The notes under the pieces are model-generated. The model was not told the origin of the DNA and did not search any database. It was given only the letters and a program-made list of their open reading frames with translations. DNA of 64,000 nucleotides from a virus, in IMG/VR virus record IMGVR_UViG_3300045391_004889, positions 43,986 through 107,985 of that record; one strand, given 5' to 3'. Below, in pieces: positions 58,370 through 62,504 of this stretch. Position numbers and translations under genes: made by a program. Every line of letters starts with the position of its first letter. Positions within the stretch are counted from its first letter, which is position 1.

Positions 58370-58462
58370 TGGACATTTGGGACAAACGGGACATCTGGGA
58401 GGCGTGGAGGACAGTGGCGACAAGGGGGACACAAGGGTCATGGGCGGACAAATCGGACATCA
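58370..58462. repeat. cluster of (G)GACA short repeats in non-coding DNA
   Basis: 8 GACA cores within ~90 bp. Confidence 0.5.
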
Positions 58463-58646
58463 GGGGCATAGCGGGTCCAGGTGGGTCGAAGTGGAGGTGG
58501 CTCGGTTTTCGGGCAGGCCAGGTCCTGGCGTTCCCTGTACCTGTCCAGGGTACCAGAGCCGGCGTGATATGTAAACAGCAAAACACGTCGAGTTTGATGT
58601 GGACAAGTACAGGCCGGCGTGGTATGCTGGACACAGCAGGACAGCA

Positions 58647-58686
58647 GGGATAACCGGGCCGGCCCAGCGGGGGCCGGCGGAAACCC
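58647..58686 (+). ncRNA. structured RNA motif, copy 1
   Basis: GGGATAACCG-hairpin-CGGAAACCC; ORF-less unit between two promoters. Confidence 0.5.
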
Positions 58687-58776
58687 AGGTCCCGCGGGTG
58701 TGGACAAGCACGTACGCAGCTGGTAAGGTTGTACCAGACAGCACGGAACAGGAACAGGAACAGGAAGGAAACGAAC

Positions 58777-59046
58777 GTGGACGTCACCCTGGAGCTGGAC
58801 GTGATGGGCGCGGACGAGGGTCCGTGGGAGCGCGAGGGCCTGGAGGACCTGGGCACGGTGATGGTCGAGCTCGTGGAACCGAGCGGGCCGGCGGGCGGCA
58901 ACCCCGTGGCCAGGGTCAGCGGCCCCAAGGCGGCCGTGGTGGTCTGGCTGCTGGTCGAGTACGTGGCGCAGGACGACTCCGCGCTGGACGAGGCGATGGG
59001 CCTGCTGCGGCCGGTGGAGGACGGCGGCGCCCGCGTCGCCGGCTAA
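58777..59046 (+). CDS. early cassette gene, acidic hypothetical
   Basis: Own promoter and leader. Confidence 0.65.
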   Translation: MDVTLELDVMGADEGPWEREGLEDLGTVMVELVEPSGPAGGNPVARVSGPKAAVVVWLLVEYVAQDDSALDEAMGLLRPVEDGGARVAG

Positions 59047-59134
59047 AAATCTTGTGGCGGGGTGTGGACACACACCCCGCCACGGGGTAGGATGGTACCA
59101 TCAGGAAGTGCACAGGAACAGGAAGCGAGTGATC

Positions 59135-59395
59135 ATGTCGTACTACGCGCTCGAGGTGGATCTTCCCGTCGAGGACGAGGCCGCGCACGCCGGCCTGCTC
59201 GGCCACAAGCACACGCCGGCCGGCGACGTGGAGGTCGAGGCCACCAGCGCCCAGCTCGGGGAGGTCTGCACGTTCCGCATCCTGGGTGAGATGCCGGCCA
59301 TCCTCACGTTCCTGGCCGGCCTGTGGGAGTCCTACGAGGAGGCGCTGGACGAGCTCGGCAGGGCGCGTGCGGAGGACCGCCTGCAGCTGGCGTGA
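59135..59395 (+). CDS. early cassette gene, hypothetical
   Basis: Own promoter and leader. Confidence 0.65.
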   Translation: MSYYALEVDLPVEDEAAHAGLLGHKHTPAGDVEVEATSAQLGEVCTFRILGEMPAILTFLAGLWESYEEALDELGRARAEDRLQLA

Positions 59396-59487
59396 AAGAT
59401 CTTGGCCGGCGGTGTGGACAAACACCGCCGGCCAGGGTAGGATGGTACCATCAGGAAGTGCAGGAAACCAGGAAGCGAGTGTGGATC

Positions 59488-59664
59488 ATGCAGACGTACA
59501 TCGTCACCGCCAAGGACATCAAGCCCAGCATGCGGCACACCCTGGTGAGCACCACGGTCCAGGCACGCAGCTCCTGGGAGGCCGAGCAGACCGGGTGGAC
59601 GGTCCTGGGCACGCGCCCCGGCACCTGGGTGGTGGAGATCGTCTCCGTCGAGCTCGCCGCCTGA
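59488..59664 (+). CDS. early cassette gene, hypothetical
   Basis: Own promoter and leader. Confidence 0.65.
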   Translation: MQTYIVTAKDIKPSMRHTLVSTTVQARSSWEAEQTGWTVLGTRPGTWVVEIVSVELAA

Positions 59665-59752
59665 AAGATCTTGTGGGTGGGTGTGGACAACCGCACCCAC
59701 CCAGGGTATGATGGTACCATCAGGAAGTGCAGGACAGGAAGGAACAGGAATC

Positions 59753-59929
59753 ATGTCCACCATCGTGCCCGTCTCCGCGCTCTACACCCGTCTCGTCGCC
59801 GCCACGGCCGCCCAGGTGGCAGCGTGTCGCAACTGTCGCACGCTCCCCACCGGCCAGCACTGTCTCTCGCACACGTGCCTCGACTGTGGCCGCCTCGCGC
59901 ACCCGCACAGCCAGCCCTGCCAGCGCTAG
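59753..59929 (+). CDS. early cassette gene, Cys/His-rich
   Basis: CRNC..HC..HTCLDC..H. Confidence 0.6.
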   Translation: MSTIVPVSALYTRLVAATAAQVAACRNCRTLPTGQHCLSHTCLDCGRLAHPHSQPCQR

Positions 59930-60058
59930 CAGGCAGGCAGCCGCCGGCCTCTCACGAGGCCGGCCGGCGACGAGAGTGTCCACGTAAACATGTGGACATT
60001 GTCACCGCCGCAGGGTATGATGGTACCAACAGCAGGACAGGAAGAGAGAAGGAAGACC

Positions 60059-60367
60059 ATGGACCTCGCCACCGCCATCCGCCTCGTCGTCGAGGACGTC
60101 CGTCAGAGCTACCCGCAGATGTCCGAGCCGGCCGCCATCGAGCACGCCAGGGACAGCGTGGGCGTGGCCGAGCTGAACTGGGACGAGCCCAACGCCGCCG
60201 CGTGGCAGCTGGTGCTGGAGGCCCACGTGGGCGAGCTGGTGCTGAGCGTGGCCGGCCTGGTGGACGCCACCCTCGACGAGTCGGACGTGTGGGTGTCCAC
60301 CGACGGGGCACACGCCACCATCGACGGCATGCCGGCGCTGCAGTGGCTGGACGCCGTCTTCTGCTAG
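60059..60367 (+). CDS. early cassette gene, acidic hypothetical
   Basis: Own promoter and leader. Confidence 0.65.
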   Translation: MDLATAIRLVVEDVRQSYPQMSEPAAIEHARDSVGVAELNWDEPNAAAWQLVLEAHVGELVLSVAGLVDATLDESDVWVSTDGAHATIDGMPALQWLDAVFC

Positions 60368-60460
60368 GACGTCTGGTCAGGCTCGTCCGCGATTGTTGTG
60401 GACAATCGCGGGCGGGCCTGGTAAGATGGTACCAACAGCGGGACAGGAAGGAACCAGGAA

Positions 60461-60706
60461 ATGGAACGCAAGATCACGCTCATGCAGCACACGCCGAACA
60501 ACCCCACGCAGGTGGAGGGCGGCGAGCTCGTCAAGCTGATCGGCGAGAAGCTGGGCGAGAACTGGGGTGCCGTCAAGCTCGGCAGGGCGTGGTGCTTCAT
60601 GAAGGACGGCCAGCCGGCCGGCCAGTCCACGCGCACCTTCTGGAGGGCGGTTGCGGACGTGATGAAGCTGGAGTCGCTCAGCCGCGCCGTCCCGACGAAG
60701 AAGTGA
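60461..60706 (+). CDS. early cassette gene, hypothetical
   Basis: Own promoter and leader. Confidence 0.65.
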   Translation: MERKITLMQHTPNNPTQVEGGELVKLIGEKLGENWGAVKLGRAWCFMKDGQPAGQSTRTFWRAVADVMKLESLSRAVPTKK

Positions 60707-60824
60707 TCGTCTAGCCAGGCTCGCCCACACCTGGAAACTCGTCACATTGGGTGTGGACAAGTGTGGGTGGGCCTGGTAAGATGGTAACATCAAGCAGGAA
60801 CAAGGAACAGGAAGAAGGAAGATC

Positions 60825-61916
60825 ATGAACCTCGGAAACCTGAAGGCCGGCAAGACCACCACCGTCGAGGGCCTGGACATCACCAAGGGTGACGGCCACT
60901 ACGACCTCGGGTACAGCGGCGAGGCGTGGACGCTGACCTACGACAAGGACGAGAAGGCCTGGGTGCTCGCCCGCGGCAACGGACACACGATCACGTTCAA
61001 GGACGCCACCGCGAAGACCATCGTCTTCACCGTCCTGGACACCATCAAGGCCATCCTCGCCGCCGACGAGCAGGCGGAGGCCGAGGAGGCGGAGAAGCCG
61101 GCGGAGACGGACGAGGAGAAGGCCGCCCGCAAGCGGGAGGGCATCCTGGACAAGATCGCCGCCGCGATGAAGATCGCGCAGGACCCGTCGTCCAGTGACG
61201 AGCAGGCGGAGGCGGCCCTGGCTGCCGTCGCTCGCCTCATGGACCGCCACTCGGTGTCCGAGGAGGAGCTGCGACGCCGGAAGGCGACCGAGGCCGGCCT
61301 CGAGCACGGCGACGAGGAGATCGTCGACTGGACCTACCCGATCAACGTCCAGGGTGGTCACGCTCCCCACCGCGTCGCCGCCTTCGCCAGCGTCGTCACC
61401 GCCATGGGTGCCCGGTGCTTCTACCTCCACCACAAGGTGAAGGGTGCCGGCTACAAGGCGGACACGATGGTCCTCCGCGTCTTCGCCCAGCAGTCGATCA
61501 TCGACAACCTGAAGGCGTTCCTGCCGGTGGTCGAGCTGCAGATGGAGCGCCTCGGGGACGAGGTGTCCCGGAAGAAGTCGCGGGAGGCGAGGGAGGCCGG
61601 CGGTCACCACTCGGGCCCGGGATGCCACGCCCGGCGGGGGTTCATGCGGGGCTTCGGCGCCGGCATCGCGTTCCGTATCACCGAGGGACGTGAGGAGATG
61701 GAGACGGAGGACGGCACGGGCTCCACGGCCCTCGTGCTCCGCGACAGGGCCACGGTGCTGGACCAATACATGGCCGAGAACCACGGCAACCTGAAGAGCA
61801 CCAAGGCGCAGAAGTACGACGACGCCGCCTACCGGCAGGGCCACGCCGCCGGCGTCGCCTTCGCCTCGCCCCAGGTCGCCACGGAGCCGGCGGCCAAGGT
61901 CCTGCAGGACGCCTGA
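60825..61916 (+). CDS. DUF2786-domain protein
   Basis: ILDKIAAAMKIAQDP.....AEAALAAVARLMDRH; C-terminal AAYRQGHAAG. Confidence 0.75.
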   Translation: MNLGNLKAGKTTTVEGLDITKGDGHYDLGYSGEAWTLTYDKDEKAWVLARGNGHTITFKDATAKTIVFTVLDTIKAILAADEQAEAEEAEKPAETDEEKAARKREGILDKIAAAMKIAQDPSSSDEQAEAALAAVARLMDRHSVSEEELRRRKATEAGLEHGDEEIVDWTYPINVQGGHAPHRVAAFASVVTAMGARCFYLHHKVKGAGYKADTMVLRVFAQQSIIDNLKAFLPVVELQMERLGDEVSRKKSREAREAGGHHSGPGCHARRGFMRGFGAGIAFRITEGREEMETEDGTGSTALVLRDRATVLDQYMAENHGNLKSTKAQKYDDAAYRQGHAAGVAFASPQVATEPAAKVLQDA

Positions 61917-61995
61917 GAACGATCACCGCCCGGGTGTGGACAACGCACCCGGGCGGTGGTATGCTGTACCCAGGAACAGGAACTGAGGAGGAAGC

Positions 61996-62130
61996 ATGGA
62001 CGAGAACGAGTGCCAGCTCTGTGGCGAGGGCAACGACGAGCTTGATCCACTCGGCATGTTCCGCCGGGACGGCGAGACGATCATCGCGCACGGGCAGTGC
62101 GGCGTGGACGAGGGTCTCGAGCTCGCCTGA
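61996..62130 (+). CDS. 44-aa early cassette gene, absent from the ORF track
   Basis: GAGGAGG RBS; CQLC..H..C; ends at the module junction. Confidence 0.6.
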   Translation: MDENECQLCGEGNDELDPLGMFRRDGETIIAHGQCGVDEGLELA

Positions 62131-62197
62131 AAGATCTTACTGCCGGGTGTGGACAACCGCACCCGGCAGCTGGTAAGATGGTACCATCAGCCAGGGA

Positions 62198-62235
62198 GGG
62201 ATAACCGCCACCGGCGCATCGCCGGACGGAAACCC
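62198..62235 (+). ncRNA. structured RNA motif, copy 2 (5' leader)
   Basis: GGGATAACCG-hairpin-CGGAAACCC. Confidence 0.5.
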
Positions 62236-62282
62236 GGAAGCTGATCACCGCAGGAACAGGAAGCGAACTGAGGAGCAAGATC

Positions 62283-62504
62283 ATGGCTGTCACCATCGCA
62301 CGCGTGGAGAAGGACTTCGTCGAGGGCGAGACGGTTCGCCACCTGGGCACTCAGCGCCTGGCCATCGTCGTCGGGGAGCGGGTGCTCACCGAGCGGGTGA
62401 TCGGCCGGCTCGGAATGACCACGCACCGCCTGGACGTGAAGATGCACGGGGACACCCGGGTGCGCACCTTCCACGCGAACCTGTTCGAGCCGCTCGCCGG
62501 CTAG
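62283..62504 (+). CDS. early cassette gene, SH3-like
   Basis: FVEGETVRH..IVVG. Confidence 0.6.
   Translation: MAVTIARVEKDFVEGETVRHLGTQRLAIVVGERVLTERVIGRLGMTTHRLDVKMHGDTRVRTFHANLFEPLAG

Follow-up and report, generated by a model that had tools for sequence, protein, structure and literature searches.

The last 64 kb of the 107,985-bp IMG/VR virus record IMGVR_UViG_3300045391_004889, a record with terminal repeats, carry two copies of a short hairpin, one directly behind each of the promoters P1 and P12 of the early region (the whole stretch of 64,000 nucleotides analysed here is called the window in the following). Judged by covariation among its relatives, this hairpin is a structured RNA element that is both genuine and new, and it belongs to a small clade of uncultured viruses resembling actinophages. 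With a confidence that stays somewhat short of even, it is read here as a phage-specific structured RNA module of about 55-60 nt, which would sit at the start of early transcripts, act in cis and dock a protein with its loop. Cis-acting RNAs in the early leaders of phages, such as nut and put, have taught much about transcription control; to our knowledge, almost no structured cis RNAs are known from the early leaders of actinophages.

Two copies of a hairpin downstream of early promoters

The motif GGGAUAACCG...CGGAAACCC is present in exactly two copies in the 107,985-bp record. A preliminary description of the window had pointed out that positions 58647-58686 and 62198-62235 share this motif, and the pattern GGGATAACCG-N(5-35)-CGGAAACCC indeed matches exactly at these two places on the plus strand and nowhere else in the window; dinucleotide shuffling gave an expectation of 0.00 matches, and 0 of 100 shuffled sequences contained any match. 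On folding, both copies form a single long hairpin, which is built of the stems P1 to P4 (always called stems here to distinguish them from the promoters), has a small loop between stems P1 and P2 and an apical loop of 3-5 nt, and reaches a total helix length of about 17-22 bp. The outer stems, which had been described as different in sequence but able to pair, do so in the predicted folds (GGAC/GUCC in copy 1 and AUCAGC/GCUGAU in copy 2). The interior of copy 1 consists of the internal loop AUAA/AAA, stem P3 (CC/GG), a GG bulge, a stem P4 of 8 bp and the apical loop AGCGG. In copy 2, stem P4 (CCGGCG/CGCCGG) is accompanied by bulges of CCA and A, and the core is otherwise composed of GGG/CCC, AUAA/AAA and CCG/CGG. 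The folding z-scores are modest (-1.5 to -2.5), and the case for a structure therefore rests on covariation in the relatives described below.

The window promoters follow the design TGGACA-N17/18-TAnGnT with an upstream TG and are of the sigma-70 type. The part of the window from 58.6 kb onwards is an array of one-gene cassettes, each with a promoter of its own, and contains 13 of the 15 promoter matches of the window; downstream of copy 1, the array comprises at least 12 cassettes, each of which is closed by a strong hairpin. Both copies of the element lie just downstream of a promoter, as had been noticed before (Table 1): the hairpin begins at position +5 (copy 1) or +1 (copy 2) relative to the predicted transcription start, and it begins 0-5 nt past the predicted start in all six sequences that were compared. 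Copy 1 fills the 71 nt between the -10 box of P1 and the -35 box of P2 (58700) and overlaps only open reading frames (ORFs) that are not conserved. Because of this lack of ORF conservation and because the core is 37, 39 or 40 nt long in the orthologues, which corresponds to differences of 1-3 nt, a coding function of the hairpin region is ruled out. No U-tract terminator was found on the plus strand after copy 1 or copy 2. Copy 2 ends 37 nt ahead of the ATG of a gene for a 73-aa protein, leaves its Shine-Dalgarno sequence uncovered and is plainly a 5' untranslated region (UTR) element. The earlier view of the element as an RNA-only cassette thus holds in one respect, namely that the P1 unit lies between two tandem promoters and is free of ORFs in all five lineages in which it was found; it does not hold in that no terminator precedes P2 and in that copy 2 belongs to a 5' UTR. 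For the genes downstream of the two copies, no Pfam or PHROG function was found, and their neighbours have no recognisable RNA-binding domain.

Relatives and covariation

Six sequences from five lineages were sampled: this phage, L085, L106/L216, L121/L125 and L305. A pattern scan of viral contigs returned one true relative, L085 (IMGVR_UViG_3300017937_000001), and the same kind of scan applied to metagenomes added at least two further lineages, L106/L216 and L121/L125. L305 (IMGVR_UViG_3300048904_000313), a complete genome of 107.5 kb, was found by a protein-guided search. A neighbour of the hairpin, a 363-aa protein with a DUF2786 domain, has 25 metagenomic homologues; an alignment of 26 sequences of this protein used as the query detected two related viral contigs and no others, while searches for the locus with the 363-aa protein alone or with an alignment of two sequences found no relatives. 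A relaxed pattern combined with the covariance model described below revealed no further members. At least four other lineages share the layout of this phage, in which repeats are followed by promoter P1, the hairpin, promoter P2 and a first gene; the first gene behind P2 differs from lineage to lineage.

The stems vary in a manner that preserves pairing. Five versions of stem P1 occur, and each of them pairs. Stem P2 is GGG/CCC everywhere but in L305, where it is AGG/CCU, that is, both sides have changed (G-C to A-U). The sequence of stem P4 is specific to the lineage; it is GCCGCCAC/GUGGCGGC in L085 and contains a central A-A mismatch in L121. In the alignment of the six sequences, 89.7% of the cells are paired and five pairs have changed on both sides. 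When five measures were compared with shuffled controls, the observed values were reached in 0-5 of 500 shuffles, and sliding the structure by 1-3 columns reduced the paired fraction to 31-54%. The loop AUAA/AAA, the adjacent G-C pairs, the CC/GG pairs and one bulged G are invariant in all six sequences; taken together, 15 loop-adjacent positions and the bulged G are unchanged.

A covariance model of the hairpin, R1, matches twice in this genome, once in each related record and nowhere else; copy 1 scores 70 bits and copy 2 scores 51 bits (E 2.6e-9). A search of Rfam 15 at gathering scores returned only tRNAs and nothing over the motif, and no family matched either copy with E values up to 10. 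No DNA match to the hairpin region and no protein match for the 363-aa neighbour were found among cultured phages. Over 121 actinobacterial genomes, R1 detected neither a host copy nor a leader of this type in front of the gene for the ribosomal protein uL6. The suggestion that the motif represents a conserved structured RNA with an unchanging A-rich internal loop is hence well founded, as its stems covary in at least four other lineages and no Rfam family corresponds to it.

In L085, the leader of the orthologous 73-aa gene lacks the hairpin; copy 2 has hence been added in this phage, and the element is portable. The 73-aa protein itself was considered as a partner of the hairpin and rejected: its gene was not found in G004, a complete relative that has the hairpin. 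For this reason, a host factor stays a candidate partner, and a phage-encoded partner is less likely, also in view of the neighbours without a recognisable RNA-binding domain.

In three lineages, a second conserved structured leader is located past P2 (L305 6340-6412; L106, L216, L121 and L125). It is composed of a hairpin CAGG...CCUG, CCCCAGUAUA, a covarying GC hairpin and UACAG, in this order, and is not present in the P2 leader of the window.

Likely host

The G+C content of the window is 65%. The DNA polymerase of the phage is about 42% identical to its counterparts in Arthrobacter, Micrococcus, Microbacterium and Gordonia phages. The phage encodes a GH25 endolysin, whose C-terminal wall-binding part is 47% identical to Streptomyces phage endolysins; Streptomyces phages (83) and Arthrobacter phages (34) account for the majority of its 195 matches. 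The remaining structural genes have no relatives among cultured phages. Based on the DNA polymerase and endolysin matches and on the promoter type, the host is very probably an actinobacterium.

Resemblance to helix 97 of the 23S rRNA

A blind scan of metagenomes and species genomes with the phage-derived pattern matched 23S rRNA genes in at least eight loci. The Rfam model of the large subunit (LSU) rRNA depicts the matched region, which we take to be helix 97 (H97; E. coli positions 2735-2769), as a hairpin with stems of 3 bp (lower) and 5 bp (upper), which are separated by a 4x4 internal loop (AUAA over GAAg) and closed by a loop of 11 nt. The phage hairpin agrees with the LSU consensus in the lower stem of 3 bp, in AUAA on the 5' side of the loop and in the two C-G/G-C pairs that open the upper stem, and all six phage sequences retain G-AUAA-CC and GG-AAA-C. 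The closest resemblance is seen with an H97 of the AAA type, which is present in Methylobacterium and in a metagenome-assembled genome of the Hyphomicrobiales and reads GGG-AUAA-CCGCU ... AGCGG-AAA-CCC, with one G missing from the 3' loop strand; the phage core is identical to it over 10 + 9 nt and has the same pairing. The actinobacterial H97 (Nocardia, Amycolatopsis) reads GGG-AUAA-CCGCU ... AGCGG-GAAG-CCU, and its 5' strand equals that of the phage (11 nt in copy 2). H97 is also the best hit of R1 in each of three actinobacterial 23S rRNA fragments, and R1 scores 24-30 bits on the AAA-type H97, at loci that had been preselected by the pattern itself. When viral contigs were scanned for hairpins carrying the 3' strand of actinobacterial H97, nothing convincing emerged. 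As far as sequence and predicted pairing can tell, the likeness to H97 is real and structural, yet the hairpin is no exact copy of the helix of the likely host.

Natural H97 internal loops occur in at least two forms, AUAA/GAAG in Actinomycetota and AUAA/AAA in Methylobacterium, Hyphomicrobiales and others (23S rRNA loci L108, L135, L218, L282 and L256 compared with L302, L303 and L383). Since both forms exist in nature, the helix on the uL6 side tolerates an internal loop without the G. H97 is bound by the N-terminal domain of uL6 (PMC4199504, PMC9638911), and the apical loop of H97 latches onto H42, with bL36 between the two helices (PMC4199504, PMC9638911, PMC11077053).

A proposed cis-acting leader module and its alternatives

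If the hairpin is a cis-acting leader module, its paired 5' end would shield the 5' end of the transcript and the unchanging internal loop would be the docking site for a protein. By analogy, the likeliest ligand would be the host ribosomal protein uL6, which would bind via its N-terminal domain; it is the best candidate because the core of the hairpin resembles H97. Binding would mark the transcripts from P1, and in this phage also those from P12, as a separate class, which might be more stable or differently expressed than the transcripts from neighbouring promoters without the module. The module is portable, this phage having added a second copy to a leader that lacks the hairpin in the closest relative. 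With a leader module acting in cis, both copies find a simpler explanation than with an RNA-only cassette, as there is no terminator before P2 and copy 2 is a 5' UTR element. The element is compact and backed by covariation, has a clear register with respect to the 5' end, is portable and contains an unchanging loop, all of which makes it easily testable. If the H97 likeness is functional, the phage would read or hijack a ribosome-assembly protein by RNA mimicry.

It is tempting to go one step further and to regard the hairpin as a viral mimic of H97, which docks free host uL6 onto the first early transcript or soaks up uL6 as a released small RNA, although this more specific proposal is doubtful. 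If it were true, early phage expression would be tied to the state of host ribosome assembly, or assembly would be disturbed; no mimic of an rRNA helix encoded by a phage would have been known before, and uL6 would gain its first role and its first ligand outside the ribosome.

Several observations weigh against a uL6-binding leader. The transcription starts are predictions from the spacing to the -10 box (6-8 nt downstream), and the strand was assigned from promoter direction alone, because G-U pairs are nearly absent from the hairpin and the reverse complement folds just as well. Compared with actinobacterial H97, the phage 3' strand has one G fewer, an A for a G and a C for a U; a 3' strand of the phage type was found in 0 of 301 Actinomycetota genomes and the GAAG type in 10 of 41. 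As the H97 of Actinomycetota carries GAAG-CCU on this strand, the host helix is copied inexactly. Moreover, R1 scores only about 14 bits on actinobacterial H97 (E about 0.2), and the conserved apical loop of 11 nt in H97 is replaced in the phage by a GC stem of 6-8 bp with a loop of 3-5 nt. A-rich internal loops are common RNA modules, and the likeness could reflect such a module without a common partner. A recent review names uL6 solely as one of the genes in the spc operon and assigns it no extraribosomal role (PMC10931766).

The location of copy 1, right after the first early promoter and ahead of at least 12 hairpin-ended cassettes, would also suit a processive antiterminator of the put type, in which the nascent hairpin binds RNA polymerase and enables transcripts from P1 (and P12) to read through the GC-rich hairpins at the cassette ends, while transcripts from other promoters stop there. 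The put sites of HK022 are likewise found just downstream of early promoters; furthermore, the tandem promoters P1 and P2 would give rise to two transcript classes, the second copy is located at a later promoter, and the unchanging loop and bulge could touch the polymerase. Antitermination is nevertheless rather unlikely. The cassette hairpins lack a U-tract on the plus strand and none of them is called a terminator there, which is difficult to reconcile with the requirement of the mycobacterial polymerase for a U-tract (PMC3993855). Read-through would be unneeded where each cassette has its own promoter, and put consists of two stem-loops, whereas a single extended hairpin is formed in all six sequences. 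If the element were put-like, RNA-only antitermination would be extended to phages of high-GC Gram-positive hosts, in which the nature of terminators is debated. Another proposal, which we regard as unlikely, is that P1 produces a stand-alone small RNA that more or less equals the hairpin, is self-ended or processed and serves as a trans-acting decoy for a host protein, either uL6 or another H97-binding factor. The absence of ORFs from the P1 unit of the five lineages would fit, as would the 3' arm, which adjoins the next -35 box in the same way as the cassette-end hairpins do, and hairpin terminators without U tails have reportedly been claimed for the Streptomyces phage phiC31. However, no terminator signal lies past the hairpin, a single RNA would have to titrate an abundant ribosomal protein, which poses a problem of stoichiometry, and expression of the 73-aa gene requires read-through of copy 2, as no promoter lies in between. 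For the latter reason, copy 1 could be released as a small RNA, whereas copy 2 could not.

The hairpin might instead be a plain 5' stabiliser or a processing site of the RNase III type without a specific ligand, for which the paired 5' end and the helix length would suffice. Only 0-5 unpaired nucleotides precede the hairpin at the predicted 5' end, stem P1 is made from the conserved, initially transcribed AUCAG, and RNase III substrates and known 5' stabilisers have helices of a length comparable to the 17-22 bp or so found here. Such a function would leave unexplained why 15 loop-adjacent positions and the bulged G are unchanged in six sequences in which every stem varies, and it is distinctly unlikely. 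The arms also constitute an imperfect inverted repeat, iteron-like repeats are located just upstream and the complementary strand folds no less well, all of which would be compatible with a DNA-level element, that is, an operator of a dimeric protein or a single-strand hairpin signal for priming or an origin. An operator, however, needs no covarying self-complementary spacer, and the register of +0 to +5 relative to the promoter is fixed in each of the six cases, even in copy 2 at a distance of 3.5 kb from the repeats; a role at the level of DNA is thus very improbable. The preliminary description had raised the option of an anti-CRISPR RNA that mimics a single type I-E repeat, since GGGAUAACCG resembles GGGGAUAAACCG, presumably the end of the E. 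coli type I-E repeat. This idea was rejected and is hardly credible: the likeness is confined to one 10-mer, no Cas6e-type hairpin precedes it, and the bases at this place vary and pair with the 3' flank. In addition, the likely host is an actinobacterium, the unit is never arrayed in 185,579 species genomes, and H97 matches better, on both strands and in structure (10 + 9 nt).

Features of the early region

The coordinates of the two copies and of the features next to them are compiled in Table 1.

Table 1. Hairpin copies and adjacent features of the early region (window positions)
Feature	Position	Strand	Remarks
GGACA box cluster	58371..58459	+	seven direct copies, iteron- or operator-like; upstream of P1, context outside the RNA
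Promoter P1	58600..58628	+	first of the rightward early array; TGGACA-N17-TATGCT with TG upstream; -10 box 58623-58628; predicted start about A58635
Hairpin copy 1	58639..58692	+	stem P1 GGAC/GUCC (58639-42 with 58689-92); stem P2 GGG/CCC (58647-49 with 58684-86)
Promoter P2	58700..58729	+	GTGGACA-N-TGGTAAGGT; 7 nt past copy 1; followed by the first early gene (58777-59046)
Promoter P12	62150..62179	+	twelfth promoter; TGGACA-N18-TAAGAT; -10 box 62174-62179; predicted start about A62186
Hairpin copy 2	62186..62245	+	stem P1 AUCAGC/GCUGAU (62186-91 with 62240-45); core 62198-62235
73-aa gene	62283..62504	+	no function assigned; copy 2 in its 5' UTR; Shine-Dalgarno sequence GAGGAG

The GGACA boxes upstream of P1 are identical in their core to the -35 boxes of the promoters. 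L085 possesses the same cluster of seven GGACA boxes (about 9270-9110, minus strand), and at the corresponding place of L106, L121 and L305, repeat units of the type ATGGCCA(C/T)AT are found instead (6030-6150 in L305). The iteron-like repeats before the first early promoter could be operators or an origin.

The hairpins between the cassettes (59054-59083, 59404-59433, 59673-59702, 62139-62169 and others) contain the -35 box GTGGACA in the loop or in the 3' arm, and they covary between the phages. One of them (59083-59054) is called a terminator, on the minus strand only. The palindrome AAGATCTT is present at window positions 59396, 59665, 62131, 62505 and 63151, five copies compared with 0.17 expected, and is located immediately after a stop codon and just ahead of the hairpin that holds the -35 box of the next promoter. 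It is found at the matching place in L085 and L305 and may be the site of a dimeric regulator or a part of the cassette boundary.

All lineages with sufficient sequence of the early region, namely this phage (61996-62130), L085 (6220-6085, minus strand), L121 (after P2) and L305 (from 6663), encode a 44-aa zinc-ribbon-like protein (CxxC...HxxxC) near the hairpin. In the window, the gene for it stops shortly ahead of the promoter of copy 2, and in L121 it is the first gene past the hairpin; the protein is a candidate early regulator. The 363-aa DUF2786 protein (P0001, window 60825-61916) is encoded in exactly this form on six contigs, the longest of which has 216 kb, about twice the length of the genome, which suggests concatemeric assembly or repeated sampling of this phage.

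Comparison with known systems

The phage hairpin shares features with several known RNAs. RNA anti-CRISPRs, which consist of solitary repeat units, are also small phage-encoded structured RNAs near early promoters; the hairpin differs from them in having neither full-length likeness to a repeat nor a Cas6 hairpin or a matching host array. Like the 5'-terminal stabilisers of the type of the ompA leader and the early RNA stabiliser of phage SP82, it is located a few nucleotides from the predicted 5' end and is portable between leaders; however, these stabilisers need no particular loop sequence, whereas the internal loop of the phage hairpin is invariant. The put RNA of HK022 is a structured RNA right after phage early promoters as well, with two copies per genome and conserved unpaired bases, and needs no phage protein. 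In contrast to the hairpin described here, it has two stem-loops and another sequence; the phage studied here has putative terminators and a promoter for each gene.

With H97 of the 23S rRNA, the hairpin has in common the G-rich lower stem of 3 bp, the two sides of the internal loop (AUAA on the 5' side, A-rich on the 3' side) and the start of the upper stem with C-G, C-G; it differs from H97 by its extra outer stem and by its location in an mRNA leader rather than in rRNA. In this respect, it resembles the autoregulatory leaders of ribosomal proteins (L1, L10, L20, S8, S15 and others), in which a hairpin in the 5' leader of the mRNA repeats a local rRNA stem with its internal loop. We know of no uL6 leader of this kind. 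The phage hairpin is not placed upstream of a ribosomal-protein gene but is followed by phage genes without an assigned function, and a phage leader of this type would hence serve another regulatory purpose.

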